DNA of 57,735 bases, counting the filler, from Ionaspis alba (lineage: Eukaryota), in assembly GCA_964255285.1 (NCBI GenBank). It is 4 parts of 4 records of this genome, joined end to end, with 100 filler letters (N's around TTAATTAATTAA, not from the genome) between each part and the next. Parts side by side here need not be neighbours in the genome. Positions count along the whole stretch, not along the records: positions 1 to 14,397 come from CAXUUL010000422.1; 3 more parts are not named here. The stretch is one strand, 5' to 3'. The position numbers and the translations under genes are program-made. The notes under the pieces are model-generated. The model was not told the DNA's origin. It saw only the letters and a list, made by a program, of their open reading frames with translations, and did no database searches. Within the stretch, counting starts at the first letter, position 1. Every line of letters starts with the position of its first letter. Shown in pieces: positions 1-51,984 of this stretch.

Positions 1-527
1 ACCAGCGACTTCCGGCTCACGCTCAGATTCGCCGTTCACCTTCTCCACCAGTCGAGCTGGTCTCGATCTCCAATCTCGACTCCCAATTTTGACAACCGCA
101 GTCCTAGATCAAAGATTTACAGAGTACGAATCGACTACGAAACGTTCCTGCAGCTACTAGAGTGCTAGAAACATTCCAATCATCGAAGTCACCTCCGCCG
201 ATGGTGATGCTGAGATGCGGAACTGTTTTCGAGTGTTTACCCAATCACAACGTGTGAGGATCTGATTATTCCAAGGGACAACAATAGTGTTGACATGGTC
301 GGCTTCCACCGTGATTATCACCTTGTTGACTGTGAGGAGGAATACATGGTCTCATACATGCAAAGAGATGACTTCAATACTATTCTTTGCTTAAACAGTT
401 TCAGCTGTCGATGATTTTCATGGTGATCCAGTATTTGATAGATAACACGACTCTGGCATGCATTGAATGGACCGTGATCCCAAGATGTGGACGGACCTAT
501 GCTATTCTTCAATGCGCAACTCAATCT

Positions 528-3500
528 TTACATAAGACTACTCCGCCCCCCAATCTCAACGCCGCCCTGCCCACTAGGCATCTCGCCATTCCTCCCAACC
601 ACGAACTCCTTATAAATGTGCTCCAATTTCCTTCTCTCCTCCCGACTAATCGAACTCCTTGTCGTAGCCAGAGAAGCCTCAATATGCTTCCACCTGATAA
701 TAACTTCTACCTCCTTACCCCCAGCTGGCTCCTTCTTGTCCTTGTGGACTGCGTTGTCTTCTCTCCCACCACGTTTAATAGCACGCGCCCTGCGTCTTTC
801 CGCTCTCGCAGCCTCCAACTTTGCGAACAAAGCTGCCCTCTCAGCAACATCTCCAGATCGATTGGCACCTGATGCAGAGCGTGCAGCAGCTTCAGCCCGA
901 TCTTCATCCTCGCCGAAGCGAAACTGGATAAGTTCTCTCGGTCTCGGTGCTGACACGGTATTGTGCCTAGTCTGATATCTGTTCTCGTCTACAGCGCCCG
1001 CGCTGCCCTTGCCATCGCCCAGCACGTCATGAATTGCTTCCAGATGGGCATTGTAAACCACAGCCTGGAGATCAGCACCAGAGTAGCCCTCTGTGCGACG
1101 AGCAATCTCCGAAAGATCGTGGCTTGAGCCAGCTGAAGTAAGCAAGGCCGGATCGAGGTGGAGTTTCGTGCTCAGTGCGCGGAGAATATCCAGGCGGTCG
1201 TCTTTGGTCGGCAAGTCGCAGATAAGTGATTTATCTAGACGGCCTGGACGCAGAAGAGCGGGATCGATGAGGTCGGGCCGAGATGTTGCTGCAAGGACGT
1301 AGACGCCCGACAGCCCTTCAGCACCGTCCATTTGCGTAAGTAGCTGGTTGACCACGCGGTCCGTCACCCCTGTCGAGTCGTGACCGCGCTTGGGAGCAAT
1401 GCTGTCGAACTCGTCAAAGAACAGCACACAAGGTCGAGCGGCCTCCGCACGCTCGAAAAGATCACGAACGCTCTTTTCGCTGGCGCCGATGTATTTGTTC
1501 AGGATCTCAGGACCTTTGACGCTGATGAAGTTGAGACCACACTCGCCGGCTACGGCACTGGCGAGGAGAGTCTTGCCGCAGCCGGGATAGCCGTAGAGGA
1601 GGAGGCCGGAGCGGAGGCGCAGAGGACATTGAGCGAAGATGGGAGCGTAGGTGGTGGGGTATTGGAGGGTTTCGAGCAGGATGCGACGGGTGGAGTGGAG
1701 GCCACCGATGGAGGCGAAGGTGGTGGTTGAGGATTGGAGGGTCACGTTGCGGAGGGAGGCCGGGGTGAAGCCTTTAAGGGCTTGTTGGAAATCGAGTTTG
1801 TTGAGATCGACCATGGGCTGGGTGCGGGATGTTTGGGATTCGTTGACGGTTCGGATTAAAGCTTCGCTTCTGGCCCGGGAGAGTAGGAGCACGAGGTCGC
1901 CGGGCATATAGCCATCGGTCTGCCCCGCAATGTCTAAGAGGTCGAGATCGCGGCTTAGGGCAAACCCTGCATTGCTGTGGGACGAGTTTGGCCGACTGGC
2001 AGCGTCCATCCAGTCCCCGTTAGTGATAATCTGAGCATGTCCACTGATACCATTCGTCAAAGTCTGGGCATCTTTTCGCAGGCTGCTGAGGGAAGCAAGG
2101 ATCTGCCTTCTTGAATCTTTGTCAGGAGCCTTGAGGTCAACGATTTCTCGCACAACATGGCCGCCGACGATTATGGAGTTCAATGCTTCCTTGTTCTGTA
2201 CTGTGGCAAGGAGCACAACACCCGAGTCTAGTCCGCAGTATTGTCGTGCAACTTTAGCAACAAGCTCACTCAGCTGACGACTTCGACCATTCTCACCACC
2301 AACTTGTAGCTCTGTTTCTGCAGGACACAGTTTGTCTAGGTCGTCGAGAATAACTAATGCACTGCCTCCCATGCGAGCTCCCCATGATGCAGTCATAAAA
2401 AGACGATTAAGTGTGTCTTTGATGGTAGTGATGCGGATTTCATCAGTGACGAATTTTCGGCAGGAGAAATAAGATGTATGACAAAAATTATTTTTGCGTA
2501 GAATGTGGCAAAGCAGATGTGTAAGGCACGTTTTGCCAGATCCTAGGCCGCCTGTCAAGAGGACTGAAGACATGTTTCTTAAATGAGAGGTAAGCTGAGA
2601 CACGAGTTTGTCAATTCCCACCATGGACGGCGCTCGATCGGGCAGAACATCAGTCTCTACTGCTGTAGCCTTTCGAAGTTCAAAGGGGTTTGGGATCTCG
2701 GATTGGACCTCAATACTCAAGGACCTCTCGTCGCCGATCAACCAACGGGGACTCTGGTTGTCGCTCGCACCAGGAGATGCTGATGGTTCAAAGCGGACAA
2801 TGCACCCGTTCCAAGAGTCCGAGGTTTCTTCACTAGGAATTTTCGCGAGGACGAGACCATCAGTCAATGGTCCATTCAGTATGCCTAGTGCGCCGTCTTT
2901 CTGACCAAAAAGTCCCATGATCTTGCTTGCAGCAGCCTCACGACTTGCTTTTGTCTCTCCTCCAAATCTGAGCCCCTCGGATTGGCGAGAGCTTGATACA
3001 GCGAATGGAAAGACTTTTAAGACTTTGAGGGAGCTTGTTGGTGTTTGCGGTGGGGCGGCTTCAATACGGACGACACCACCCACCATGTCAACGGCTCCGA
3101 GTCCTGCACATAATGAGGAGCTTAGTACGGCATGTCGATCATCCGGAGCATTATCCCAGAGCCCAATCCTCGCGATAATCTTTGTTGCGTGTTTCCCGAC
3201 TTCGCCACTTTCTTGGTCTCGGATTCTCTGCTGCTGTTGTGGATCAAGGGGTGCCTGTAGACAAGCTGGTTGAAACATAAAAACGCAAGCCCATTCAATG
3301 CCACGCAGATTCTTGCTCGCAAGTGCCTCTCGATTTACCCACACCTTCAGGCCGTCGTCAATTGAATCCTGTTCTTCGGTTGGGAACCACTCATCACAGA
3401 TCCGGCGACTAAGGCCACGAAGGAAGATCGGTCGACGAGCTGGTTCATCATCTCGAAGACTTCGCTGACGACCAACGCTCTTGCCACCAGTACTTTTTTG

Positions 3501-4282
3501 GCCAGTGCTTGCAATGCTTCGATTATCCGTACGACCATTTCGCGATGGACGTGGCCGAACTTTTGGTGCAACAATGACTTCAGCATCTGGAGCAAGCTTT
3601 GCAAATGGCACGGACGATGCTAAAGGTGGTAAAAGAGAGCTGATAATAATGTTTGCAGTAGAGGTAGGAGATAAATGCAAAGTCAAAGGATGTGTTTGTC
3701 GTGCCTGAGCAGATGCTGATCCAGTAAATGAAGGATTTGGTAGTGCTCTTATCTGAGAAAGAAGGTTCAATTCCAGGAAGGTCGCATGTAATTCTATGAT
3801 CTCCCAGTCACCCGGCGTCAGGGGTTCGATATTGACTGTATGGGCAAGGGGAGGATCAAGGTGCAGCAACACTCCAAGCCTTTGACCTGGAGACAAGCCA
3901 ATCATGCGTCCGAATGTGGCGTCCAGCTCTACGACGCCGGCCTCTTGATCTCTGGTTGGCCCGGACCTGTTACCACCTTTACCGATAGAAGATTGAGGCT
4001 TTTTCTGACTGGGCATGCCGCTCCATCCCACATAAATTGATTGTTGAAGATTCGCAGCGGCTGCTCTCTTGACAGTGGGACTCGGCAGATACTGAAGTTC
4101 AACCACGACGTTTTGAGCAGCCTATATCATGTAAATTCAAGTCCATAACAAGCCAATACAAAAGAACTCACTGTATTTGCATTTACCAAAACTGTGACCA
4201 TAGATTGTGGAAGATTGACCAAGCAATTTCTCAGCTGGACCAATCCGACTTCTGCTGGAGTGGCCGTTTGTTTTGGCGTCAT
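528..4282 (-). CDS. PEX1: Peroxisomal biogenesis AAA ATPase Pex1 (2 exons, intron 4122-4171)
   Basis: Exon 1 read by hand: MTPKQTATPAEVGLVQLRNCLVNLPQSMVTVLVNANT, then a GTGAGT..TAG intron, joining AAQNVVVELQY of the 1192-aa ORF. Pex1 N-domain (EPLTPGDWEIIELHA) and two AAA modules (GGLGSGKT; GYPGCGKT, FFDEFD, DPALLRPGRLD). Confidence 0.96.
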
Positions 4283-4434
4283 GATTGTGGAAACAGAACG
4301 ATACACTCATTTTCGAAATCTCGAATGAAACAAGGCTCAGTCCATGAACCTTCATCTGTAAAGGACAGATTGCTCGAGATCTACACCCTATGAGTTGGTG
4401 TCTGCTCACCATAGGCATATGCTTCTCGACTTTG

Positions 4435-4440
4435 CCGAGG
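4435..4440. promoter_or_regulatory. Candidate FarA/FarB (Ctf1)-type CCGAGG site upstream of PEX1
   Basis: CCGAGG about 150 nt upstream of the PEX1 ATG; this is the known core motif of fatty-acid/peroxisome regulons in Aspergillus. A hexamer alone is weak evidence. Confidence 0.35.
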
Positions 4441-4913
4441 TAAGGGGCCCAGGACGCTACCAAAATGCCAAGGATATCTTTTGTCTGACTTCGTCCTTTC
4501 GCGCTCTCCGGAACCTATACTCGAGCCAATATCATCCTCTATTTCAGAGACCGCGTTTACGATGTCACCTGTACTTCGCGTCTCGGACAGCGCCTGTTGA
4601 AAAGCTTCGATTGAACTTTCGATTGAAGACCACAAAGGAGACCAGTATTTTTAGCTCATTCGCAGCGCTCATGCTAGATTCATTGTCTCCACCGTCGCAG
4701 CAGAATTCCCTTTGTTATGAAGGCCCATTGTCTTAGTTGTCTTATTGTGTAACCATCAAAGGCCATATAAAAAATACCATTGTCGTTGCAAACATATAAG
4801 AAATCTCAAATTCCCTAGCGATGTGGATATATAACTACCGATTTTCACTTCACCAGCGAGTCTTCAGCATCAGCTCTTGGACGCTAAGCTAAACATAAAA
4901 CAACTATCCAAAT

Positions 4914-5072
4914 ATGGCTCCTCATTCTTGGATCTGTTGTTGGTGCGAGCAACATAACTTTCCGGGGGTGATATATTGTACCCGGTGCCGACACTCCCCA
5001 AAAAACTGTTCACGATGCTGGTTTTGGGGAATAGGAAAGCTAGGCTGGATTCGGGGTTGGAAAAAGAGTTGA
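4914..5072 (+). CDS. Small Cys-rich putative zinc-ribbon protein (52 aa)
   Basis: Hand translation MAPHSWICCWCEQHNFPGVIYCTRCRHSPKNCSRCWFWGIGKLGWIRGWKKS*; W-x-CC-x-C..N..CxxC-x-H..CxxC pattern; A at -3 of the ATG; TATA-like TATAAAA/TATAAG about 120-150 nt upstream. Confidence 0.6.
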   Translation: MAPHSWICCWCEQHNFPGVIYCTRCRHSPKNCSRCWFWGIGKLGWIRGWKKS

Positions 5073-5430
5073 ATTGGTGTAGCTTGGGTGGCTCTAGCTC
5101 CTGCAACACTCTTTAAATATAGAGGAGGTGATCTTAGGCATAGGTTCAATCTTGGAGATTTGCACATACAAAAACCGTTACCAACAAATGAATGTGACAG
5201 ATATCATGACTTTGACTGATGGAATACCTTGTGGCTCAATCATAATGAATAATAGGGTATGGGAGACTATTGATCAGCGAAGCCACGAGAGTCTGCTTGC
5301 TATCTAGCAACATCCGGCGGCCCTTGCATAACCCACCTCGGCGAGGATGCCATCTTCATCCCGGTCACCGACCAAAAGCCATTCTATTTTTATTCTTCAG
5401 AAAACTCCACCCAGCCAATGCATTGGACCA

Positions 5431-6440
5431 TCAAATTATCTTCTCTGCCTCCTCGACCAACTTCTCAACCCTGAAACCCTGATCCCCTTGACTAAATTGC
5501 TCCAACAACCTCTTCCTCTCCCCAAACTCCCCCCCATAAAATTTCTGCAAGCACATAACCAACCACCTGCCCTCCTCAACACTAACGCCTCTCCCTTCAA
5601 CCACATTCCCCTGCAACAGCACAACGCCCTTGTCTTGCGCCAAATCCAAATGATGCGTAATCGTCGTATGCGGCTGACTAAACTCTCCTCTCAGTTTATA
5701 TTCCGCCAGGTGCGTGAACAGCACCGTCGTAGTCGTGGATGTGGGAAACGTCCATTGCAGGAAGTGGATTTCTGCGCCAGCGTTCTCTCGCGGAAGGGGG
5801 AGGATGAATTGGGGGTGCCGCCGTGCAGTGGCTTCGATGTTGGTGTATACTGTGGAGGGGATGGTCGCGCACAGGGATTGCGGACTATTGGCATGGCGGA
5901 GCCGCCAGATGTATTCGATTTCTTTTGCGGGGAGGGCGAGGGTTTTGGGAATGTCGATGTAGGAGGAGAGCGTCTTGATGCCAGGGGGTGTGGCGAGCTT
6001 CGAGTCTGGTGATGGAGGGGGCGTGATCGGATGTTCTGTTGGTATCCGCGGAGCTGGTGGTGGAGGTGGAAAAGGGGATGTTGATGATGGCTGGGCTGGA
6101 GATGGTATTGGTAGAGGAGTGGAGGCTACCTTCCTCAGATCTTGGATCTTGGCTTTATAGACCTCTTTCAACTCGTTGATATCTTTGACACCGGCTCTGT
6201 ACTCCTATCAGACTTATGTGTAGAAAGAAGGAATTCCTGTCGGTGATCACCACTTGATGCATACTCTTTTGCTTTTTTATCTAGTTTCTCTTTGTACTTT
6301 TCAATGACTCTATCCGATTCTCGATGGGTCGCCAGAAAACGGACATCGTGAACTTGCGCCCATCTTCGCTGCGACCCGCGCAGATAGGGAGCGCTTTCTC
6401 CAATAATATGACGGAGGGCGGGCGCTCGAATCACTGCCAT
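5431..6440 (-). CDS. ATP11: Mitochondrial F1 ATP synthase assembly factor Atp11 (2 exons, intron ~6197-6264)
   Basis: Presequence-like N-terminus (MAVIRAPALR..QRRWAQVHDVRFLATH); ATP11 motifs IKTLSSYID, HPQFILPLPR, EIHFLQW, VLFTHLAEYKLRGEFSQPH. Confidence 0.93.
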
Positions 6441-6500
6441 AGAGGATGGTATGAAGGAGATTTGGTTGTTTTTGCAGGGATGAAAGCAATGGATATTTGA

Positions 6501-6506
6501 CCTCGG
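6501..6506. promoter_or_regulatory. Candidate FarA/FarB-type CCTCGG site in the ATP11 / CoA-ligase divergent promoter
   Basis: CCTCGG about 220 nt upstream of the ATG of a PTS1-bearing acyl-CoA ligase. Confidence 0.35.
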
Positions 6507-6728
6507 CAACATCGGCATTGTCCTACAACGGCCTTGAATATTCCGTCTTCTTCCCCACACTACGTAATTTACTTCTAGATAAGAAGCAATGGCGGGAAGG
6601 AATGTGTTCTTTGAGATCCATTGGAACACCTCTCCTTTACTTGTATATAGGCATTGTGAAACATTCTTACTTGATACCATTGGTTGCTAACTCTTGCATT
6701 TTCTGCGGTTGACAATTTTCAGATCATC

Positions 6729-8497
6729 ATGCCTACTGAATCTGCCTACCCCAGCTTCGACCTACCGAGCGTTGACATCTGGGGACTTCTTTTTGAGCGT
6801 AAAGACCGCCCATATCCAGACGATAAAGGTTTTCCACACTCGAAAAACTTTATAGTGAAGCCATTAGACTGATTCGATCTCCAGTAATCTACCGCGACGC
6901 CGAAACCCTTCGCTCCTACACCTACGAGCAAGTAAAATCTACTGCTACTGCATTCGGGAAGGGCCTGAAATCAACCTGGGAATGGAAGAAAGGCGATGTT
7001 CTTGGCTTCTTCTCACCAAATTGCGTGGATTACCCAGCTGCGATATGGGGGTGTATGTGGGCGGGCGGGATCGTTTCTCCTGCGAATCCTGGGTACACTG
7101 TCCATGAGTTAGCGTTCCAATTGAGAGACTCAGGAGCCAAAGCACTGTGTACACAGAAAGCATTTTTAAAGGTTGCAGTGGAGGCGGCGAAGCAGGTAGG
7201 GATACCGGAGAACAGGATTATCTTGATAGGGGATGAAAGGGATGAGAACGCAAGGTTCAAGCACTTTACGTCCGTGATAAATACTGCTGGGACGTCGAGA
7301 TATCGAAGGACGAAGGCGGACCCGAAGAAGGATCTTGCATTTCTGGTGTACTCTTCTGGAACAACTGGACATCCCAAAGGCGTCATGTTGAGCCACGAGA
7401 ATATCGTTTCAAACATCTTGATGATTAGTGCGGGAGAAGGTCGCAATCTGTCTTGGAAGGGTGGTTCTGAAGACAAGGGCGACAATATCTTAACCTTCCT
7501 CCCCTTCTTTCATATCTATGGTAGTGCCTCTGCGACCAGTCATTAAGCTCAGGCTTATCATCTTACAGGTCTTACATGTTGCGTTCACCAAGCCTTCTAC
7601 AGCGGTTGGACCCTCACAATCATGGCTAAATTCGACATCGAAAGATTCTGCGCCCATATCCAAGACCACAAGATAACCTTCGCCTACGTCGTCCCACCTG
7701 TCGTCCTTCTGCTAGGCAAGCATCCTGTCGTAGAAAAGTACGACCTTAGCACGCTAAGGATGCTCAATTCTGGCGCTGCACCACTGACCCGCGAGCTCGT
7801 TGATGCCACCTATGCTCGCCTGAAAGTCCCCATAAAGCAGGGTTATGGGCTCAGCGAGACAAGTCCAACGACTCACACCCAACCTTGGGAGTTATGGCAT
7901 TCTACCATCGGTGCTGTTGGTCGTCTTCTTCCGAACATGACAGCCAAGTACATGTCCGCGGAAGAAGAAGAGTTACCGGCTGGTGAGACAGGCGAGCTGT
8001 GGATAAAAGGCCCTAACATCTTCAAAGGCTATTTGAACAACCCCGAAGGCACGAAAAACGCCCTGACGGACGACGGGTATTTCAAGACCGGAGACGTAGG
8101 GCACCAAGACAAGGATGGCAACTTCTACATCACGGATCGTGTCAAGGAGCTCATCAAATACAAAGGCTTTCAGGTACCTCCAGCTGAGCTAGAAGGCCTT
8201 CTGATAAGCCATCCTATGATCGATGATGTAGCGGTCATAGGTGTATACGACGAGGCACAAGCGACGGAAGTGCCAAGAGCGTACGTTCTGCCGGCGAAGG
8301 GAGTCGAGGCAGGTAAGAAGACGGAGGACCATATCGTGGATTGGTTGCGAACAAAGGTTGCGAATCATAAGCGTTTGAGAGGTGGAGTGCGATTTGTAAA
8401 TGAGGTGCCGAAGAGTGCAAGTGGGAAGATATTGCGGCGGATACTGAAGCTGAAGGCAGAGGAGGAAGCGAAGAAAGGTGGAAAGGCAAAGCTTTGA
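6729..8497 (+). CDS. Peroxisomal 4-coumarate/phenylacetate-CoA ligase-like AMP-binding enzyme (3 exons; introns 6829-6884, 7521-7568)
   Basis: ANL motifs YSSGTTGHPKGV, QGYGLSET, FKTGD, DRVKELIKYKGFQVPPAELE, PKSASGKILRR; C-terminal -AKL is a PTS1 signal. Confidence 0.92.
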
Positions 8498-9162
8498 TTG
8501 CGATATAATTGTGATGCAACAGCCACAATTTGAGAACCGGCCCATAGAGCCCGTTGACATTCTGCTGAATAGAATGTGAGCCTTTTAACGATTCCCACCG
8601 ATCAGGCTTCTCGTGCTTATAATATACCACACCAGGCTGGTTCAGAGCCACGAGTTCGTAAATGAATTGGCTGCCCTTGTCACAGCAGCTCTTTGAATCC
8701 AGGTCTCATAAGCCATCTCAAAGAGCTCGCCAAATTCCTCCCCCAAGGATATAGCTCCGCTTCATCCCTAGTCAAAATACCACGTCTCCGGCGAATCGGC
8801 TCTCTTAACTGCAAAGCTGTAAGTATGTACGGCGTAAATGAAGAGCGTATGGCCCGTTCCAAGTGGCTGAAGTAGGCCACGAGACCACTTACCTAGCGAT
8901 TCTCCGAGAAAGGAAGATACCCATCGTCCGACCAGAGGATTTTCACAATTCTTATCATAGCTAGCTCAATCATCTGTTGCACCGCTAGTAGCGGAAGTGG
9001 AGCACTTGGGACAACTGTTCCAACATTCGTGCTGCCATGTTATGGCTTCGCCATCGGCCAGTAAAGCTTGATAATATGGTGCTGACAGCCGACGGTCCTG
9101 GTCTGCTTTGACTTCTTGAATTATCTTCTGGGCCGAAACTGGCGATACTGGTTTCAAGGATA

Positions 9163-12100
9163 TCAACGACGGTACGTTGTGCGGTCTATACGGATTGCTG
9201 GCACCAGGTCTTCAGATGCGGAAGGAGTTGAGTCCTTCCTCGAGTCTCTTTTCCGCCGAAGTCGATTTCGCATAATGGAGGACGTCGTGGGATTTAGATG
9301 AGTCAAGGAGATTGGAAGTCGAGGCGATCGCTCTGAAATGACAATAGGCCGTCGTCTTTCTGCCGTCTCGTCATCTAGACGAGCTCGTGTCGTTGCGATC
9401 TCAGCTAGGCGCTCTTGTCGCTCCCGGCCCTGAAGCCTCCTCACCTCTGATAGCTCAATGTCGCGTGGACGGAGATACTCCGCGTTCCGCTCTACTCGGA
9501 AGGGACTATTACGCAGAGATTGCGGGATTTTACCGCGTGACTGAGGTAGCGAGGTGGTGGAGTTTGCTTTACTTGAAGCAGACACTGACGTAGAGGATAG
9601 TACGGTGGGGCGGTCCGTACTGGAAGGACCAAGTGGCGATGGGCCAACTGGTGAGTGAATGACTGGGATAACTGGCTGTGGTATAAGACCGGGTGGGGCT
9701 TCCTGTAGATTGCCAGGATCTGGCTTGCCTTCCGACATTTCTGGGACCGAACTCTGCAATATGAGGCTTCGCTCTCGTTCGCTTGATGTCGATACAGGTT
9801 CGACTACTTGGGTTGGACCAGCCTTCATTTTCGATTCTTGGGAGAGGTAGGACCGGGATTTCGTAGCGAGCTTATGAGCAATGAGCTTCTCCGCCAGTCC
9901 TTCTAAGGACCGCTGAACATCCGGTTGCCTCAGATACTTGGTAGTTGCTTTTCTTATCCGCAACATCGTATCTTGCGAGGAACTGCTTCCTACCCTCTTC
10001 AAATCGTAGGAAACAATGTCCTCCAGACCAGATTGTACACTAAGACGGAGGTAAGATGAGCCCGGCTGAGACGAGTACTTTGCCTGAGCAATCTTGTGTA
10101 CTTGCTCACTATTGAAGAGCTCTTTCTCCGTTTTGTTCAGACCTTTCAAATATCCGGGGAGAATCTTAAGAGTCGAATTAACCTTCCTGTCCACGCCTGA
10201 CTGACTGTAATGTTGGCGAATCTTGTTCAGCGCTGCTTCATCCTTGATGTTTACACCAGCTCCGATGCTGACGACAAGACCAGCTGGATGCTTAGACATG
10301 GTCGCTGCTTCTCTTATGGCGAGCAACGTGGGATTGAAACCGGCCAAATCTCCCGAGACCAACCGTGTGCCTCGTATCTTCACAGAATCAAAATAATACG
10401 GGGTTGCTGTCGTTGCGCGAGCGACCTCCCCAATACTAGCATCGTCCACAACCGTTGACGGACCCCGCTTTCTGTCACTATTCTTGATTTGATAAGTCCG
10501 AAATGGATGATTTACCAGGCGTTCTGCATCGACCCGACATGCCATGACAAGACTGTAAAAATTCAGTTCCAATCCTTCAAGAAAGTGATCAGATACATTA
10601 CTTACGTTTTACAGCCGTCAACGGCATCAGCACGAAACCTAACATTATACTCGGCCATCACTTCATTGATTGCGGTCTCGAATCTATGATGGCTGTACTT
10701 CGCTCGTTGAACGACGCTGGAGCGAAAAGACATAGCTCGAGGTTTCTGGAAGACCTCGAGTGCGAGTCTTTCAAATTGAGCAATGCAGGAGTCAATTCCC
10801 ATGCCGAGGCGACCAAGCATGATAGCTATAAGGCTGCAAAATACGTTAATGGACTGTCAATCAGACGAAGGGAGGTGAGATTACCCTCCGGTCCCAGTTC
10901 CAGCTATGATGTCGAAATAAGTACAAGGGCGTTGTTGTGCCGTCGTCCAGTCAGAAGCAATTTGACTTGAATTCGGGTCTGCGCTTCCATCTAGTGTTGA
11001 ACGATGAATGACACGCATCAAGTGCTTGAGGATAAGTAATGACGAGAAGCTACGGATCCCGCCGCCGTCTGCGTGGTTTTTAGCAATGTAGAGCATTTGA
11101 GATGGAAGAGAGTACAGACCAAGGGACAGTAGACATGGGCCTGTTGACGTAACTCCCGCGCTGTACGGAGGACGAAAGAGACGGGGCAACGAAGGAGCGG
11201 GAGGTGGCAATGCGAATAGTTGCGGTCGGTCTGAAGATGGAGAGCCGGGCGTTTGTGTGACTTCCTGGATAGGAGGTTCGTCTGCCGTACCTCTCTCAAC
11301 GGTTACCTCTTGTTTCTCCTTACCGAGTAGGACCTCCGATGCTGGCTGTTTTGAGGACAGATCTTCCACCGACGTACGCGGCGTACCCTTGCTTGCATCT
11401 TTCGCGGTGAAGGACTTACCTGATACTATCTTTGATGGCTCCGTTTCGTTCACCGGTTGAGGAATATTGAATTTACCGGGGACGATTCCTTGCTCAGTTG
11501 CGTCCGCCAATTGAGGAATATTGAATCTGCCAGGAACAACTTCTGGCTCAAGCTGGTTTGCCTTTTTTCCACGCCACAAGTCTAATGTTGTCTCTAGTGT
11601 ATCGGTGACAGGAGTAGCCTCAACACGCGTCAACGCGATCTGTTGGCGTAGACCACTGAAAGGGCCCTTCTGGAATAATGCTGCTCGCTCCATCTGAATG
11701 CTTTCGGTCAGATCGATCAAAAGGCTTATCAGGTCAGCCAAGGCAGCATTCTGCTTTTGGGCCCTCGAGCACGCCTGGTCGAAACTTGAAGTCCATTGTG
11801 CAAGGCTCCTAGGGAAGAAATGATCAGTAGACAGTCCGAAGACAATTGACAACCACCTAGCATTTTTACCGTTTGCTCATCTTTTGAATACTTGCTCGTG
11901 TTAAAGTGTCCATTGACTCCAAGGTTTCACCGAATCCTTGAAGTCGTGCCTCCAGGTCGTCCAAGATGCTTTTCAAGTGCTCATGCAGGATATTATCGCT
12001 GCTATTATAGGCCAACAGGTCCTCAAAGACACCATCTTCCTTGCCGATATCAGAGGTCCATATCTCCAGCCGGAACAGTTGATCATCTAGACCTCGCGCT

Positions 12101-12264
12101 ACAGAGTTCAATTGATCTTGAGCTCGAGCCGAGAGTGAAGCTGTTGAACGTGCTATTGCTTGACCGATCCTGTCCCGATAGCAAAGGGTACAGCGCTGGA
12201 GCTTCCCTTCGACGCTCAGAGCTTCGCTAGGTGGATCAGTGGTCGCTCCGATCTCATGCGCCAT
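9163..12264 (-). CDS. Patatin-like phospholipase-domain protein with helical (HeLo-like) N-terminus; catalytic Ser and Asp absent (5 exons)
   Basis: Spliced by hand (introns 11809-11869, ~11069-11119, ~10834-10884, ~10553-10605): LLSLDGGGIRSFSSL, FDIIAGTGTGGLIAIMLGRL, EVARATTATPYYF, LVSGDLAGFNP, VVSIGAG, YLRLSVQSGLEDI follow the patatin motif order. The 3' end is uncertain. Confidence 0.85.
11430..11550 (-). repeat. 54-nt (18-aa) coding tandem repeat, 2 copies plus a partial third
   Basis: GGAATATTGAAT at 11461 and 11515; protein EVVPGRFNIPQLADATEQ / GIVPGKFNIPQPVNETEP / SKIVSGK. Confidence 0.8.
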
Positions 12265-12568
12265 TTCGCATGTAGTATACTCAAGTTAAGGCGCTGCGAA
12301 CCAAGTCGACAATATCATCATATATAATGATGGTGCTCCCCAGACGTTGCCATCATGGACCACAAGATTCATGAATTAGGACGGAGCCGCGCAAGGCTGC
12401 CAGCTGACACCACGAGTGATCGATGTGGCTTGAGGCTGAAAGATGCGCGAGGCTGAAGGATCTCCCAAGTCTTTCTCGTGATAAGGCACTCTCCCAACTT
12501 GGAGTGGAATAATGACCTGGAAAGTTTGCAGTCGATTCAACCCGTTGAAGTAATCCTTCAATCTTGAT

Positions 12569-14392
12569 ATGGCGGAAGCTTTGGCGATATTTGGAGCCAT
12601 ATCTGCGACAATTGGCCTCCTGAACCTTGCTCGATTAGGTTTCATCGGCCTTGTCAAGGACTGTGAGAACTACCAGGAAGTCGGCAAGAAAATCACGATC
12701 ATTCAACGTCAAATCAATGGCTTTCAAGTGCGTCTCAAGGCATGGAGGGGCCTTTGGGTTTGCGATGGTCGAGTTGACGAGGAACTACTGGAAGGATTTT
12801 GGGGAAAAGAAGGCTGGCAAACGATCGCACATCAATTGGCAGCAATTGACCTTCGATGTCTCGACATAGCAACCATACTAAAGCCCTTTGCAGTGGAGAC
12901 TGATCTCGACGCGCTTTCACAAAATGACCGAATCGATGCATTGGCCCGCGTGGAAATGCATGCTCGTACTCAAAGTCAGGAGCACGGAAAATTGCAGAAG
13001 CGTAATCACATTCCCGACTTCGTCAAACGAGCCCTGGCAGGGAAGCCGCAAGAAGAAACGAAAGAGCAAAAGCTGATAGAGCTACGGGCACTCGCGCAAC
13101 ATGCTCAGAGTAGCACAAGCACTAAGAAGAAACTGAAACTCGTGCTTCGTACTGGCGAAAAATTGGAAGACCAATTACGGACTTTGCGCAGTGACTGGAT
13201 TGATCTTGAGAGCTCTGTGGAGACTTTCTGGACACAGAACCACTCTCGGAACTGGAAGACTTGCACGTACTCGGAACGAGAAACTCTGGCCTTGACGACC
13301 TTATACGGATATGTACTGAAGGAAGCCGTCCGAAACCGCATCGCCATAAGGACTCTGCACGAATGTTGTTCGAGAGCAACAACTACCGTGAGGCTTGAGA
13401 TTGATTTACTAAAAGCTACAGATACAGGAGAAGGGCGTCGTGTGCGGTTTCCCCTGCTCATGCCAGGGTCTGACAGGAAGCTCTTTCTTCTTGTCGTTGA
13501 GCCTCTGGGAAACGCTGCTCCTGCCGGCGTCGTCGAGTTTTACGAACAGTTTCGAGATGCACTGGGTCATACGGAAAGAAACGGGAATTGTTATCTCAGC
13601 ACATCATATCCAGGAGAATGCAATGGGGTAGACGCACAGCACCCCAGCCCTACTACATCATTGTACTTCTCACTCAGCAAGCTCAACGACAATTCATTCA
13701 ACACGAATAAGAGATTCAAGGATCTCACATATAAATTGAAGTACATGTCTGATGTGGAGCGTTTCGAGCTGGCATACAGGGTCGTTGAAAGCGGACTCCT
13801 ACTCTTGGGTACTTCATGGATGTCACGATTCAACAGCGCGTCCCTCTTCCGACTCAAGGCACCGGATCAGCCACCAAGATACGTTCTTCGTGTTATGAAG
13901 AATTTTCCGGACAGCGTGCTTGACAGCATCACGCAAGAGAGGGCATTGATTGAGCCTAACATTTTCAGCATGGGTATCATGCTCGTGGAAATCGCTCTCT
14001 GCACGCAGGTAGTCGACATTGAGAAACTTGGAGCAGAGCTATGCTTGGTACATGGTGAAATCTCCGGTCAAGATCGGTCTACACGGCAACGCATTGTACA
14101 TCTTGTCAGAAGCAAAATGGGTGATGATTATTCCTTAGCTGTTCAATACTGCCTGCAGGATCCCACGCATATGAACCCCGGAGCTTCGATCAGCGCTTGG
14201 CGAGATGCCACAATGTCTGACGAAGAAAAGTATGCCACAGTAATGAACGAGTTCTATAGTGAAGCACTGGTCAGGTGAGTCGTTCCGTAATCTGTGGACA
14301 ACCACCGAATTCAATATACTCATCGCGGTGGCAGACTCGCTCATGCACGCTCTCTGTGCGGCAATCGCCAACGTGCTCCTTGCGCACCTTGA
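12569..14392 (+). CDS. HeLo-like N-terminal domain plus degenerate kinase-like C-terminal domain (2 exons; intron ~14275-14333)
   Basis: Hydrophobic N-helix MAEALAIFGAISATIGLLNL then QVRLKAWRGLW (HeLo/HELL-like). C-terminal RFELAYRVVESGLLLLGTSW, IFSMGIMLVEIAL, MGDDYSLAVQYCL resemble a kinase C-lobe; no HRD/DFG. GTGAGT donor and short last exon LAHARSLCGNRQRAPCAP*. Confidence 0.75.
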
Positions 14393-14397
14393 TTAGG

Positions 14398-14497
14398 NNN
14401 NNNNNNNNNNNNNNNNNNNNNNNNNNNNNNNNNNNNNNNNNTTAATTAATTAANNNNNNNNNNNNNNNNNNNNNNNNNNNNNNNNNNNNNNNNNNNN
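14398..14497. other. Artificial contig-join linker (N-TTAATTAATTAA-N)
   Basis: Six-frame stop spacer at 14442-14453 inside a 100-nt N block. Confidence 0.97.
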
Positions 14498-15982: not shown

Positions 15983-16192
15983 GAGAGGCATAGTCTCCAT
16001 CTCTATGCGTTTGGACATCTTCTCGGAGTAGAAGATCNNNNNNNNNNNNNNNNNNNNNNNNNNNNNNNNNNNNNNNNNNNNNNNNNNNNNNNNNNNNNNN
16101 NNNNNNNNNNNNNNNNNNNNNNNNNNNNNNNNNNNNNGAGAGGCATAGTCTCCATCTCTATGCGTTTGGACATCTTCTCGGAGTAGAAGATC
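15983..16192. other. 100-N scaffold gap with identical 55-nt flanks (unmerged overlap)
   Basis: 15983-16037 is identical to 16138-16192. Confidence 0.93.
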
Positions 16193-22408: not shown

Positions 22409-22618
22409 ATATTTTCTGTCAACCAGGTGCTGTTCCAGTTGTTGAGGTATCTCTCAATGAACCNNNNNNNNNNNNNNNNNNNNNNNNNNNNNNNNNNNNN
22501 NNNNNNNNNNNNNNNNNNNNNNNNNNNNNNNNNNNNNNNNNNNNNNNNNNNNNNNNNNNNNNNATATTTTCTGTCAACCAGGTGCTGTTCCAGTTGTTGA
22601 GGTATCTCTCAATGAACC
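22409..22618. other. 100-N scaffold gap with identical 55-nt flanks (unmerged overlap)
   Basis: 22409-22463 is identical to 22564-22618. Confidence 0.93.
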
Positions 22619-28876: not shown

Positions 28877-28976
28877 NNNNNNNNNNNNNNNNNNNNNNNN
28901 NNNNNNNNNNNNNNNNNNNNTTAATTAATTAANNNNNNNNNNNNNNNNNNNNNNNNNNNNNNNNNNNNNNNNNNNN
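28877..28976. other. Artificial contig-join linker (N-TTAATTAATTAA-N)
   Basis: Spacer at 28921-28932. Confidence 0.97.
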
Positions 28977-38483: not shown

Positions 38484-41400
38484 ATGCGTTTCCTTCCTTC
38501 GGTGCTCGCCGCCTTCGCGGTGGTCTGCATTCCCAGAGTAGCTGCTGTTGCACCGACGGACAGCTACCGAGATGCCGATGCAGCACAATCTGGATACCTG
38601 CCTAATCATAACATGGACCCTGCTGTGGTCGATAGTTCTCAATTTGGTCAGCTGTGGAAGGTGCCTTTCAATGCCCAAGAACAGGTGAGCATGCTTCCTG
38701 TTCTTTTTCATGAACTTGTCCGACCCTGTCTCACGGCTTCTCGAGCTCGGAAAGGGGGAATAATAAAGACCTTGGAAGTTGTACTGTGCAGCTGCTTGCA
38801 TGGTTTATACGTTGTTCTGACAGATGTTTATGCCCGTATCCCGGGAATGGGTTTGCTGATACAACCCTGGTCGGTGCATTAGTTTTTCGCAAAACCTCTG
38901 ATCTACACACCTTCGACTGGAGGGCCTCAATTGCTTTTTCTAGCTTCAGCACAGAATTGGATTCGAATCTTGAACGCAAAGACTGGCGAAGTGCTAAACA
39001 GCCGACAAGTCCATACCCCGTTTCTCCAATCCGACATTGGTTGTACTGACATCGCCAACTACATTGGTATTATCGGAACTCCTGTGATCGACCCCGCCAC
39101 GGACACTGCATATTTCTTCTCCAAGACTTATATTCCCAATTACCGAGCAGCTGGGAATACCGGCACTTACAACGGTGTCTACTATTTCCATGGAGTCAAC
39201 ATCAACACTCTTCAAGATCTCACTGGATTTCCCATCCTCGTCGATGGCTCTGTGGCAGACAACGACCCACGTAAGTACTTCGTTGGTGGCACCATTCTGC
39301 AACGGCCCTCCTTAGTTCAGATTGGCTCTGTTGTTTACGGGGCCTTTGGTGGACACTGCGATCTATTCAACTATACTGGTCTTGTTCTTGGAATCGATGT
39401 TAACGCGAAGAAAATCGTCTCCAACTTCGTGACCGAATCAGGACCTCTGGTTCCTCAAACGAATGTATGGAATCAGAACGGTGGTGGTGGCGAGGGTGGT
39501 ATCTGGATGTCTGGAATGGGTCTCTCGAGTGATGGTAACCGCCTCTTCTTCGTCTCTGGAAATGGTCAAGGTCACGAGAATAGTGGTGTTCCTGCACCTG
39601 GTACCTCCGGCTGTAAGACATTGGGTGAAGCTTGCGTACGTCTACAGTCCGTTCTCGATACCCCAAGATCGACTGACCCCCTTCTAGGTCAACCTCCAGG
39701 TCGGCGATGGCGGCAAGCTCGCACTTACAGATTACTTCCAGCCATACGACTATCAGAACATGGACGGAGGCGATCAAGATTTTGGATCCGGTGGCGTAGC
39801 CCTCTTGGATCCGACCGTCTTCAATGGAGCTGGAGTCTCGAAGATGGCGGTCACAGCTGGGAAGAATGGCAAGATCTACATCTTGAATGCAAACAACCTA
39901 GGTGGCTACAAGCTGGGTCCAGGACAGACAGATGGTATAATACAAACCATTACAACCAACAAGGCTGTCTTCGGAGGCTGCGGATCTTACCCTCTCGAAG
40001 GCGGCTACATCTATTCAACACCTGTCGGTTATCCGACCTACGTCTATAAGCTGGGATTTAGTTCTGGAGGTGTCCCCATATTCTCTCAGGTCGGCCAGAC
40101 GACAGAGTCTTCAGCGGGACGAGTTGGCAATGGTATCCCGACTATCACAACTAATCAAGGTAAAGCCGGTACTGGGATCCTATGGCTCACAGATCCGGAT
40201 GCCGGCCTTAGAGCTTGGTATGCCGTGCCTGGCTCAGATGGACTACTAAAGCGTATCAACCTCCCACAAGTCAATGGTCTTAACAAGTTCCAGCGCCCGG
40301 CCTTTGGTGACAGTCGTCTATACGTGAGCGACCCTAATGGTGTGGTCTATTGTTTAGGCTCTCCTGTCAACCTGCCACTCAACTGCACATCTCCTGTCAA
40401 TTTTGGTGATGTCGCCCTCGGAAATTCAGCGAACCAAACAATCACGTGCAAGGCTAATATTGCTATTACCTCGATTGATGGTGCTTCAGTTGGAGACCTG
40501 CACTTCGTTGTCGACAACTCTACGTTGCCCAAAGGGCCGATTGCCGCCGGTACAATCTTCAATTTCCCAGTCACATGGGACTTGCGAAACACGAGTCTCA
40601 AGAGTACCGCAAATGCCACATATGGAAACATCTCCCCTGGTGTCAAAAGTACCGCGTTAACCTTGTACACCACCAATGCCGTAAATGGCTATTCGACTGT
40701 GTTCCCCATTAGTTTAACAGGAAATGAGGTATCGAAGCAAGCCTTCCTCACCGTGGCCCCAATTACCGTCGATTACGGTGGAGTCGTCATTACGAATGCA
40801 AGCAATGTTCCGACCATTAGCAAACCTTTTGTCATCTCCAACTCTGGTTTAAGTCCATTGACAATCACCGGTTATGCGTATCAGAATGATACTAGCGGCC
40901 CATACACCAATGTCACGACAAACTCGGCTGGTGTCTACGATCTTGGCGAAGGCTTCACCTCCTCGAATCTACCACCCGTCGGTACCGTGATAAATAACGG
41001 GACATCGATATCCGTCGACTCAGTGTTCAACCCTATCAATGGTGTGGGCAGCTACGCGTCCTACTTGTACACTTGGAGTGACGGAGGATTCTCGGAGAAC
41101 ACCTTCGAAGGCTCCGCGTCAACATCTCCCAAAGCGAATTTCTCCATCAGCACCAGTGAAGGTGGCTGGCTACCAGCTGGAAATCTCATCATGGATTTCG
41201 GTCAGGTGGCCCCAGGTTCGACTTCTTCCCGTCAGATCAGGATCTGTAATGAAGGGGGCTCCGTTCTCTCCATCTCGAAGAGCAAGCCGCCGAATGGTGT
41301 ATTCCACATTGACGATCCCGCTCAGCTGCACGAGGAACAACAGATTCCAGTTGGCCAGTGTGCATATGGTACTGTTCTGTACAATCCTCTGAAAGAAGAG

Positions 41401-43307
41401 TACAACCATGCGGATGTTTACGATAACAATACGTGGACTCTGAATACCGACGACCTGACGTTTGACGTACACGTTGTTCAGATACTAGGCACCGTCGTTT
41501 CACACAAAGTCGGTCCAACAAACTCAACTCAACAGGCAGTATATACGTACCTCGGCTGCTATCAAGACAATACTGCTGGCAAGCTCCTCGCCAACCAACC
41601 GTACGCAGGTCCACTCATGACCAACGACTACTGTCAGAACATATGCTACAAGAATGGCTACATATTCACCGGAGGAGAGTATCAACAAGAGTGTATGTCG
41701 CCTTATTGTTGACGCAATATTCTATCAATGCTCATGTGTTTAGGCTACTGCGGTAACAAACCACCGTCCTCGACATTTCTCGACGCCAGCGATGTCCACT
41801 GCACATTTTCCTGCGTGGGCGATCCTAATGATGCTTGCGGTGGTGACGGCGGCTACATATCCGTTTTCTACGATGCCACCAGATATACACCCGGAAACAA
41901 TACTGTCGCAGCTCCTACCGGCGGTCCTATCACTGTTCAAAGCGCTGCTAACTACAACTCCATTGGCTGTTACTCCGAGGCGACAACCGGAAGAGCATTG
42001 ACAGGAAAGGCACCTGCGGCACCTACCAATGGCTTCACCGTCGAAGCTTGTGTTGCCGCTTGTCAAGGATACACATATGCAGGTATGGAATACAGTAACG
42101 AGTGCTACTGCGGAAATACGTTGGCCGCGGGTTCGGTTGCGCAAACCAGCACTGATCCTGCTACCAACGGGTGTTCGATGTTGTGCACGGGCAACTCTTC
42201 GGAATACTGCGGAGGGCCCAACCGATTGAACATGTACCAGCTGAACACCACTGCCCCAACGTCGACAACATCTGCCGGCGCCTCTGCTACAGCTTCAGCA
42301 ACTCCCACTTCTACTCCGACGGGGCCTATCACGGTGGGCAACTTCACCGGATGGAACTACCTGGGATGCTACTCCGAAGTTCCCAATGGCCGTGCGTTGA
42401 CCGGTCTCGCTAACCCTCCGGCGGCTTCCCCCAACACAGTGGAATCTTGTGGAAAGGCTTGCGCCAGCTACGCCTTTTTCGGCGTGGAATATTCTGGCGA
42501 GTGTTACTGTGGCCAAAATATCAACGCGGGGTCCAGCCCGGTCACTGGCTCTACACCTGATCAAACTGGCTGTAATATGTTGTGTAGTGGTAACTCGACG
42601 GAGTATTGTGGTGGTCCAAATCGACTAAATTTGTACGCATCAAATGGCACCACTCCGACCACCACTCCGACTACCACTCCCACAGGCCCGATCACCGTCA
42701 CGAATCTTACTGGATACTCTTACCTCGGATGTTACAGCGAGGCCACCAACAGTCGCGCTCTCGTGGATCTCCAGAACCCATATCCTGGCGCCAACAACAC
42801 AGTCGAACGTTGCGCTACAGCGTGCTCCAACTATGCTTATTTCGGAGTGGAATATTCCGCTGAATGTTTCTGCGGCAATGTCATTCAAAACGGCTCTGCG
42901 CTGGTGGCGGGCAATTCGCCGGATGTCACGAAATGCAATATGGCCTGCTCTGCTAACTCTACTGAGCTCTGTGGTGGACCTAATCGCCTGAACATGTACC
43001 AGAAACTCGCGGTCACTACTAGTTCGACGTCGACGTCCGCGGCGCCTTCCACAACTGCATCATCTCTACCCAGCTCTGCAAATTCAACCTTGACCAGTGG
43101 CTCCACCACGACTGCCAACACAACCGTTATCAGTTCTACAACAGCCACCAATGCAACCATTAGTGGTTCTACGACGGCCACCACCACAGCCGCCATTGGA
43201 TCTACGACAGTCATTAGCACTACCACCAGCAGTTCTACGGCGACCGCCAATTCAACAGTCAGTGGTTCTACGACAACCACCAACACAGCCACCAGTGGTT
43301 CTACGAC
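38484..43307 (+). CDS. Large secreted protein: PQQ-like beta-propeller, Ig-like domains, 4 WSC domains and Ser/Thr stalk; 3' end cut by contig edge
   Basis: Signal peptide MRFLPSVLAAFAVVCIPRVAA; introns 38685-38882, ~39636-39688, ~41693-41743; propeller motifs GGIWMSGMGLSSDG, DQDFGSGGVALL, AGKNGKIYILN; WSC repeats (three ending CGGPNRLN(M/L)Y). Confidence 0.88.
43095..43307 (+). repeat. 33-nt (11-aa) degenerate Ser/Thr coding tandem repeat
   Basis: SGSTTTANTTV / ISSTTATNATI / SGSTTATTTAA / IGSTTVISTTT / SSSTATANSTV / SGSTTTTNTAT / SGST; AGTGGTTCTACGAC recurs; the contig breaks inside it. Confidence 0.85.
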
Positions 43308-43407
43308 NNNNNNNNNNNNNNNNNNNNNNNNNNNNNNNNNNNNNNNNNNNNTTAATTAATTAANNNNNNNNNNNNNNNNNNNNNNNNNNNNNNNNNNNNN
43401 NNNNNNN
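43308..43407. other. Artificial contig-join linker (N-TTAATTAATTAA-N)
   Basis: Spacer at 43352-43363. Confidence 0.97.
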
Positions 43408-50500: not shown

Positions 50501-50956
50501 ACGAATTGGCCTGTCTGTTGAAGCTCTCGCAGCAAAGTATGATTGTACCACTATGAGCTTCTTCTGCTCGATACCGGGAAGGGCTGCAGCAATGGCATGT
50601 ACGTCGTTGCCCCGTAGGAAGGCTCGTTCAAATTCGTTGAGGACCAGCTTCAAAACCTCTTCGTATGAGCCTTGGGAATCATCATCTTCATCGACTTCTT
50701 TGGAGACGAAGCCGAGAAATCTAGCCACAAGCTCTGGTGTCGACGAAGGCTCGTCATCTTGTGCTAGCTCGTCTGTTGGTGTTGGGAGGGAGGAGGTAAA
50801 GCGGTCTTTGAGCTGTGATGCTTGGAAGTGAAGGACGGTGGGTATCAGGAGAGAATGCTCTAGAGAGCCATGTGAGAGGACGAGAGGACGCAATGAGGAC
50901 GAGGATCGTGGCGTCGAGACACCTGTCTGAGGGCCGGTACCACCAGCGCCGTGCAT
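44567..50956 (-). CDS. FAS1: Fatty acid synthase beta subunit (3 exons; introns ~45707-45760, ~45052-45101)
   Basis: AT (GHSQG), ER ([15 protein letters not shown]), DH ([16 protein letters not shown]) and MPT ([23 protein letters not shown]) domains. In-frame upstream ATGs exist up to ~51004. Confidence 0.97.
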
Positions 50957-51984
50957 GTTCGAGGAGTTGAGGGGCATGGAGAAATGTGAAAGGTTTGGCT
51001 GCATTCTGTCAGTGTTGTGAGAAGGGTATGGAGACGGTATGAGAAAGACAGTAATGGAAGACGGGGAGAGCTTGCAGTGGAAAAGATTGTTAAAGTCTGA
51101 GGTTTGTACTTACCACGAGAAAGCTTAGGACAGTCGGATACTATGAAGCTCCACAACACTTGGCTAGTGTGGAAAAGCTGGTCAAAGGAAGCAAGAATGC
51201 ATTCAATGGGCGCGAGGAAGTCAAAAGTGCCTATCAGGGACTCGAGTATTGCTCTGTGGTTGGTGGAAGGGTGGGGATTGCGTAAAGATTCGGGATGTTA
51301 AGGATCTGCACGACAGGAACCGAAAAAAAACAGTTGAGCGCAGAAGCTTCAAGCTCTCTCCGCATTTTTCGCCTTAGTCATTTGAACTCGGTATGGGGAA
51401 GGCCCTCCGTCGTCAAATGGTGGTGTGGATTTACATCTGTGTATGACATTGAGGTCTACAGCGCTTGGTGCCATCGTCTTCTACAGAATTATCAGCATAT
51501 ACATGTCGCAATGGATGCCTACAGCAGAGAAATATTCTTGTGCATGGCTGGTGCTCGATGACATGGTAGTTCCTGAGCTTGCAAAACTCGGCAAGAGCCA
51601 CTGGGGCATGGGGGCCGCTAAGGCAAGCCCTACCCAACTTGCATCATAGCGTCCCAACTCTCTTTTTCGGAAAGCTCGAACTGACGGCGGGAGCTTTGAC
51701 TCGCCCAATGTTTCCGTAGCTCCGTTTCTGTCAAAAACTCTCCACCCGAGAAGATCTCTATCAATCAGTCAATCTTCACTCAGTGCTTTGCATTTACCTC
51801 CTCACTCCGACAACCTCTCTCCTCACAGCAATTAACTCACCTTGCCTCTCCCCATCACCAGTCTCTCCTTCAGAAACAAAAAGCTCACATCCTCTCCCTC
51901 ACGTCACTCTAGGCAAACACCCCCTCATACCAGCACTCTCTCTACTCTCAATTCCCCGTCTTCGGACGTTAAAGCACCCTCATA
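50957..51984. promoter_or_regulatory. Bidirectional promoter of FAS1/FAS2
   Basis: About 1 kb between divergent starts; CT-rich leaders on each coding strand; CCAAT at ~51704. Confidence 0.7.

Follow-up and report, generated by a model that had tools for sequence, protein, structure and literature searches.

The window analysed here is a 57,735-nucleotide stretch of DNA from Ionaspis alba (assembly GCA_964255285.1), of which positions 1-14397 are one entire contig (CAXUUL010000422.1, hereafter C422) from an 18.3-Mb fungal assembly. Near the end of this contig, two genes stand head-to-head: a plus-strand gene for a protein that joins a HeLo helical bundle to a decayed kinase fold, hereafter the HeLo-pseudokinase, and a minus-strand partner gene that joins a helical domain to a patatin-like domain without its catalytic serine. 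The head-to-head pairing of a HeLo-pseudokinase with such a helical-bundle/Ser-less patatin gene is new. The HeLo-pseudokinase open reading frame (ORF) runs from 12569 to 14278 (+) and encodes 569 amino acids before splicing; it begins MAEALAIFGAISATIGLLNLARLGFIGLV and also contains RFELAYRVVESGLLL, NIFSMGIMLVEIAL and YSLAVQYCL. Splicing of a predicted 60-nt GT..AG intron (14275-14334, +; donor GTGAGT at 14275) would join exon 1 (12569..14274, +; residues 1-569) to exon 2 (14335..14392, +), which adds a 16-residue tail and a stop codon at 14392 for a total of 585 amino acids. In 68 of the 94 long homolog ORFs, the stop falls in the alignment column of this intron, so the intron is probably conserved. 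An initial annotation, made from the sequence alone, had ended the gene at 14392, which is correct provided that the intron is spliced, and the features that it quoted (the N-terminal start, C-lobe-like motifs and YSLAVQYCL) are all present in the ORF. The gene and these features are confirmed as genuine; they are conserved over a family of 349 representatives and are therefore not chance. The stop codon lies 5 bases from the end of the contig.

The partner gene, overlooked in the initial annotation and found here, starts 304 bp away on the opposite strand, and the interval between the two start codons (12265..12568) probably serves as a shared promoter. Its five exons (12264-11870, 11808-11120, 11068-10885, 10833-10606 and 10552-9163, all on the minus strand) form an open 961-aa model (9163..12264, -) with four GT..AG introns and one stop, comprising a helical N-domain, a low-complexity linker, a patatin-like domain and a tail. 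The Pfam Patatin family matches it at E 2.7e-4 and 0.08, below the cut-off. At the nucleophile elbow (10887..10901, -), the catalytic serine has become glycine, giving GTGTG instead of the GTSTG found in three further patatins of the genome, and the catalytic-Asp site (10345..10356, -), placed by manual alignment on the NP that comes after it, reads SGDL versus DG in other patatins. By these residues, the partner patatin is apparently dead as a lipase. A stand-alone patatin on contig C351 (L032:1607-3436, -) has likewise exchanged the catalytic serine motif for GTGTG; exon 3 of the partner is closest to this protein (43% identity), and exon 5 is closest to a patatin on C189 (42% over 66 aa). 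Exon 1 (11870..12264, -) is a three-helix bundle with an RLEIW..IG motif in a single-sequence model with a pLDDT of 69. A fold search with the partner returned generic helical bundles (best Z 9.3), and the HeLo profile of the HeLo-pseudokinase family gave it 6 bits only. No zinc-finger Pfam family was found in the three partner ORFs scanned, and a search of the genome with the zinc-finger region of related loci did not return C422.

The HeLo-pseudokinase belongs to a large fungal family. A three-sequence profile search gave 349 representatives at E<=0.001 (150 of the 349 listed), and our working alignment, A2, holds 102 sequences, mostly near full length. One full-length homolog is 74% identical, and identity among most relatives is 18-35%, which marks the family as fast-diverging. 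Species names were attached to four of the 20 homologs looked up: MMC22_010500 (Lobaria immixta), MMC11_004694 (Xylographa trunciseda) and EPUS_07617 (Endocarpon pusillum), all three from lichen-forming fungi, and V8E51_014486 (Hyaloscypha variabilis). ESM Atlas neighbours at 0.97-0.98 are ascomycete DUF7580 and HeLo/DUF7580 clusters, the latter with the combination of PF14479 and PF24476 known from fungal proteins; the gene described here scores below both Pfam models. The Pfam scan proposed with the initial annotation gave a divided answer. The protein itself matches no Pfam family (no DUF7580 match at E<=0.1 and no HeLo match), which counts against the assignment; a search of its own genome for the DUF7580 family likewise did not return the gene on C422. 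Among 91 A2 homologs scanned, however, DUF7580 (PF24476) is matched at E<=0.01 by 24 and above the cut-off by four, HeLo (PF14479) at E<=0.01 by five and above the cut-off by one, and kinase families by none. A tree of 48 C-lobe stretches places the family apart from the genome's five other HeLo/DUF7580 genes with support of 100/97, although this query had been used to gather the family rows and so builds in part of the separation. We regard the family as a strongly decayed subfamily of a known, almost unstudied fungal class of HeLo + DUF7580 pseudokinases (SltB/PskA-like).

The N-terminal half of the protein (aa 1-224; 12569..13240, +) is a HeLo helical bundle. An AlphaFold model (pLDDT 86, pTM 0.81) is helical over residues 4-269, with six bundle helices at residues 4-32, 36-63, 71-107, 118-139, 165-182 and 185-224. 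The A2 profile matches HET-s (2wvo at E 1.1e-5, 2wvn at E 7e-4) over HET-s residues 1 to ~172, and because the match begins at residue 1, the region is a HeLo domain in the strict sense, with its first helix. The initial annotation had drawn the comparison with HET-S, and the family profile, homologous to HET-s from its first residue, bears the relationship out. In a fold comparison, the N-terminal half resembles the Sw-5b N-domain (Z 10.9, rmsd 2.7, 120 aligned), the Rx-CC (Z 8.8) and the MLKL N-domain (Z 8.2); fold search alone cannot identify the bundle, because unrelated helical bundles likewise score Z 9-10.5. Helical-bundle Z scores below 13 may be generic, a second point against the assignment, and the HET-s HeLo domain is absent among the best 50 matches of a wide fold search run with the whole model.

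The first helix (aa 4-23; 12578..12637, +) is hydrophobic, built of small residues and HET-s-like, with a Kyte-Doolittle (KD) value of 1.69 for aa 5-23 and 1.69-1.71 for the best N-terminal 19-mers. This is a family trait: among 96 long homologs, the median best KD is 1.53, with 71 at or above 1.2 and 39 at or above 1.6. At a KD of about 1.7, these 19-mers are sufficiently hydrophobic for a signal peptide or anchor, which would make this a secreted or membrane-tethered protein of unrelated role. We consider this extremely improbable, since an acidic residue occurs within the first seven amino acids of 79 of 94 homologs and a basic one in just six; the n-region of signal peptides is usually the opposite, basic rather than acidic. 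The helix (residues 4-32 in the model) is also continuous with the bundle and aligns with cytoplasmic HET-s. The same observations make the helix named in the initial annotation look like that of HET-s rather than a cleaved signal peptide. After the bundle, two linker helices (aa 234-269; 13268..13375, +) with conserved R257, L263 and C267 occupy the position of the MLKL brace in the AlphaFold model and may be its analogue.

In the C-terminal half, a beta-rich subdomain (aa 274-372; 13388..13684, +) has the kinase N-lobe-like element order strand-strand-strand-helix-strand-strand in the model. Few of its residues align when the model is superposed on kinases, whose target ranges begin late, and neither a Gly-loop nor the VAIK lysine is conserved in its aligned family columns. 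The kinase C-lobe fold follows (aa 382-569; 13712..14274, +) and is DUF7580-related, as judged by superposition and by hhalign to paralogs; aligning the family with three HeLo-kinase-like paralogs of the same genome, which match DUF7580 and still give weak kinase matches, gave a probability of 95.9. Against kinase C-lobes, residues 382-569 score Z 9.0-9.4, led by 5c01_B (Z 9.4, rmsd 3.4, 141 aligned) and 3fzt (Z 9.1, rmsd 3.2, 143 aligned), so that the kinase fold on which the initial annotation depended is present, at rmsd 3.2-3.4 over 141-143 residues. Foldseek returned kinases or pseudokinases in every row listed, but none at E<=0.001. The rat MLKL pseudokinase (Z 9.0) is level with many ordinary kinases, and the alignment to full-length MLKL (4btf), which covers residues 9-569, has a Z of 8.7 but an rmsd of 16.5. 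Among sequence profiles, one with the C-lobe only found a single weak, unrelated match among PDB sequences (E 0.88), and the full family profile matched kinases only at E 0.09-0.9.

The catalytic motifs of this fold have largely gone. Position-blind motif counts over the 102 rows were set aside in favour of aligned columns, in which HRD, DFG and the alphaF Asp are absent from the HeLo-pseudokinase family; the earlier remark that no Gly-loop, HRD or DFG could be recognised therefore holds at aligned positions. The degenerate catalytic loop (aa 417-426; 13817..13846, +), aligned to the paralog sequence WLHKDLRSDNI with a one-residue gap, has lost its His, Asp and Asn positions. In the family columns, the alphaF-like motif NIFSMGIMLVEIAL (aa 464-477; 13958..13999, +) keeps G469, L472 and E474, each in at least 90% of the 102 A2 rows, while its Asp is replaced (at position 464, Q in 49, H in 33 and N in two of the 102). 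The activation segment is short of about 25 consensus columns, including the YxHP motif of the paralogs, and Y438 and G469 span a median of 30 residues across 99 rows. The alignment shows a kinase remnant that should be unable to catalyse. In MLKL, RIPK3 phosphorylates the activation segment (PMC12881547), and because that segment is largely missing here, a phospho-switch of the MLKL type is unlikely; a switch driven by binding appears more likely.

Taken together, a HeLo bundle fused to a decayed kinase fold is an architecture of which we are highly confident. The extreme motif loss, along with several residue-changing variants between haplotypes, might suggest a decaying, non-functional gene. 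This is very improbable: the frames of both the HeLo-pseudokinase and the partner gene are open, a full-length homolog is 74% identical, and the same motif losses are common to the whole family. The initial annotation had read the protein as an MLKL-like pore former gated by a pseudokinase. The HeLo/kinase-fold architecture and the lack of catalytic residues agree with this; the activation segment is largely deleted and the N-lobe-like part barely superposes, which does not. On the strength of HeLo homology, the protein may be a pore former.

The layout itself is already in print, as fusions of HELL and kinase domains are noted in a 2025 review (PMC12881547), and several characterised systems offer comparisons. 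HET-S/HET-s has a homologous HeLo domain including the first helix, and het-s and nwd2 are divergently transcribed neighbours (PMC3321046). The C422 protein differs in that its C-terminal half is, in the model, a folded kinase C-lobe with a 16-residue tail, apparently in place of a prion-forming domain; a Pfam scan of C422, which ends 5 bases past the gene, found no NLR. Vertebrate and plant MLKL likewise carry a helical bundle, linker helices and a kinase fold in one chain, a likeness of layout, but in the fold search MLKL is not distinguished from other kinases, and the C422 protein lacks most of the activation segment. In the wheat pair R3NLR/R3AK, the MLKL carries out cell death on behalf of the sensor NLR (bioRxiv 10.64898/2026.08.07.743466), whereas the C422 partner is neither an NLR nor a kinase. 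Podospora het-v is an NLR-free, two-gene allorecognition locus composed of the methyltransferase het-Va and the MLKL/HeLo-TUDOR protein het-Vb (PMC9262711); its control domains are TUDOR and SET, as against a kinase remnant and a dead patatin at C422.

The nearest likeness in layout is to the Pezizomycotina pseudokinases PskA and, in its N-terminal half, SltB. SltB of A. nidulans (AN6132) is a pseudokinase without VAIK, HRD and DFG, fused to an Ssy5-like protease; PskA (AN7985) is a relative without the protease, and pskA is divergently transcribed from ffkA, an arrangement that recurs in Aspergillus (PMC4557415). The PskA of PMC5374493 is a different gene, AN4536. Both layouts have counterparts in the I. 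alba genome that are homologous to the C422 family. A 1201-aa open frame on contig C196 (L007:365-3970, -) carries HeLo, DUF7580 and a protease-like ORF, as in SltB, and a pair on C394 (L008:782-6259) has the pskA/ffkA layout, with a HeLo-type pseudokinase head-to-head with an intact-looking kinase-ankyrin gene at ~0.55 kb. Compared with SltB and PskA, the C422 protein is more decayed (no HxxIxxxN and no YxHP segment) and lacks the protease, and its partner is a helical-bundle/patatin protein, not a kinase. By analogy, the Aspergillus SltB and PskA are probably of the same HeLo-pseudokinase kind. The word HeLo does not occur in PMC4557415, and SltB appeared in none of the best 15 matches of a literature search on such a link. 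The name DUF7580 was not found in the papers searched, and nothing on this subfamily or on HeLo-pseudokinase/patatin pairing stood among the matches listed, mainly titles and abstract starts of papers outside subscription journals.

These relatives suggest a different role. The C422 protein could be a non-lethal signalling or scaffold protein resembling SltB, with the HeLo bundle as an interaction or membrane-docking module and the kinase remnant as a scaffold, with or without the neighbour. Among relatives of this kind, a phenotype is reported for SltB alone: it signals cation stress to the transcription factor SltA and is described as universally conserved (PMC4557415), and the C196 paralog, which has its layout, starts without a hydrophobic helix. 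The pskA and ffkA deletions are viable and showed no phenotype among the assays reported: loss of pskA gave no cation phenotype (PMC4557415), and FfkA, a kinase-ankyrin protein, is dispensable for viability (PMC3591445). These properties speak against a lethal function. The C422 subfamily, however, retains a hydrophobic HET-s-like first helix and diverges fast (18-35% identity) where SltB is universally conserved, and viable, silent deletions would be expected of a conditional executioner too. We therefore judge a signalling or scaffold role to be rather unlikely, and a role as cell-death executioner to be moderately probable.

The wider genome offers some support for a link between such proteins and their neighbours. 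Family searches found at least five other HeLo/DUF7580 genes, a lower bound because the same searches also miss the C422 gene, and three of the five face non-housekeeping partners within ~0.2-0.55 kb. On C401 (L005:5739-9741), a DUF7580 gene is divergent from a C2H2 zinc-finger gene at 338 bp; on C710 (L006:1836-6184), another is divergent at 207 bp from a gene with a helical bundle, C2H2 zinc fingers and a C-terminal SH3 domain (E 2.7e-10) that may be an integrated decoy. The third is the C394 pair, a candidate counterpart of RIPK3/MLKL. The zinc-finger region has three matches in the genome, two of which face a DUF7580 gene; the third, on C11, has no HeLo neighbour within 4 kb upstream. Exon 1 of the C422 partner and the first exon of the C710 partner are identical at seven of 10 positions, sharing RLEIW..IG. 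Three of the five background ORFs that score higher in this comparison are themselves HeLo/DUF7580 genes or the C401 partner.

We tentatively propose, as a full model that we hold to be somewhat less probable than its negation, that the HeLo-pseudokinase is a cytoplasmic, autoinhibited cell-death executioner controlled by its head-to-head partner. At rest, the kinase-fold remnant and the linker helices would keep the HeLo bundle closed. The remnant, being catalytically incompetent and without most of its activation segment, would most likely act as a latch that binds protein, not as a phospho-switch. The controller would most likely be the product of the head-to-head gene, whose helical N-domain may dock on the executioner while its dead patatin serves as bait or sensor for a ligand, a foreign protein or an incompatible allele. 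Once triggered, the N-terminal helix would be released, oligomerise and permeabilise the membrane, as homology to HET-S suggests. Functional coupling to the neighbour, taken as a claim of its own, we put close to even, leaning slightly towards no.

Several results weigh against this model and its pairing element in particular. The gene opposite the paralog on C579, likewise head-to-head, is a housekeeping NFACT gene, and upstream of the paralog on C196 no gene could be recognised within 4 kb. The exon 1 score between the C422 and C710 partners was reached by 286 of 20000 shuffles (p ~0.014) and exceeded by five of 527 background ORFs, so that the homology is weak, and the exon-2 helix of the partner shows no similarity to the zinc-finger partners (2248 and 1206 of 3000 shuffles scored as high). 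A search for exon 1 homologs recovered only exon 1 itself among 28 candidates and none among 4052 longer candidates. In metagenomes, three of 41 synteny candidates are relatives, each with at most 320 bases upstream, too short for a partner. The link to a patatin partner rests on one genome. An executioner that works independently of its neighbour, with an unlinked or downstream trigger (a kinase, an NLR or a protease) and the patatin gene placed there by ordinary gene packing, would accommodate the C579 arrangement, the weak partner homology and the linkage seen in a single genome, and a contig that ends 5 bases after the stop leaves room for a downstream partner. Yet it would have to set aside the non-housekeeping head-to-head partners of three of the five paralogs, the recurrent pskA/ffkA arrangement in Aspergillus (PMC4557415) and the unusual character of the neighbour itself, a fusion with a Ser-less patatin. 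We find it unlikely.

Sequence variation between haplotypes bears on the allelic side of the proposed partner-controlled executioner. Sequencing run X1 contains two haplotypes over the gene pair. Five of its contig breaks fall in 11102-14397 (3.3 kb, the 5' parts of the pair) and two in 5001-11101, where the patatin part lies on a single unbroken piece of 4.9 kb (6196-11101); the clustering of breaks has a p of 0.056, which tempers the case. In partner exon 1, all five variants listed alter a residue; exon 2 has two residue-changing variants and one silent one, with a fourth in an intron, and the HeLo-pseudokinase gene has two changed and two silent codons. The count of 14 of 15 variants served for no test, since variants that share a bubble depend on one another. 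This variation hints at an allorecognition-type locus, in one run that is possibly the window's own source. Multi-base differences between the haplotypes are clustered at 11102-14038.

More speculatively, and on balance doubtfully, C422 may exemplify an undescribed class of NLR-free and amyloid-free ascomycete pairs for immunity or allorecognition, in which a HeLo-pseudokinase executioner is matched head-to-head with a sensor that latches onto it through a constant helical N-domain and has a swappable integrated decoy at its C-terminus: here a dead patatin taken over from a host protein resembling a lipase, elsewhere zinc fingers and SH3. C422 would be a polymorphic locus of that class, and its kinase remnant a latch that works without ATP or phosphorylation. 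Open questions, according to a 2025 review (PMC12881547), include what triggers necroptosis-like death in fungi, and also the HeLo/4HB proteins more widely. In a survey of Sordariales, head-to-head NLR pairs were rare and made up 13 of 225 two-NLR clusters (PMC12258605). Should the adjoining gene prove to be what switches HeLo-pseudokinases, fungi would have sensor/helper pairs built without NLRs, each pair would name an executioner and a candidate trigger, and the Aspergillus pseudokinases SltB and PskA would be connected to the HeLo/MLKL field. Otherwise, the C422 gene adds one divergent sequence to a family that is large and unstudied. The unusual partner gene makes the locus, a plausible two-gene switch for cell death or self-defence, directly testable.

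Elsewhere on C422, we identified two ordinary-looking genes, a PEX1-like AAA ATPase (528-4016, -) and an AMP-binding enzyme (7055-8497, +). The remainder of the window consists of other contigs joined by N spacers (14398-14497, 16038-16137, 22464-22563, 28877-28976 and 43308-43407), and genes across a spacer, such as an MFS transporter after 14497, are therefore no true neighbours of the pair. Ig-like domains and five WSC domains, in one or more genes, occupy 39760-43359 and reach into a spacer. Genes for fatty acid synthase beta and alpha lie divergently at 45031-57597, their usual arrangement in fungi.

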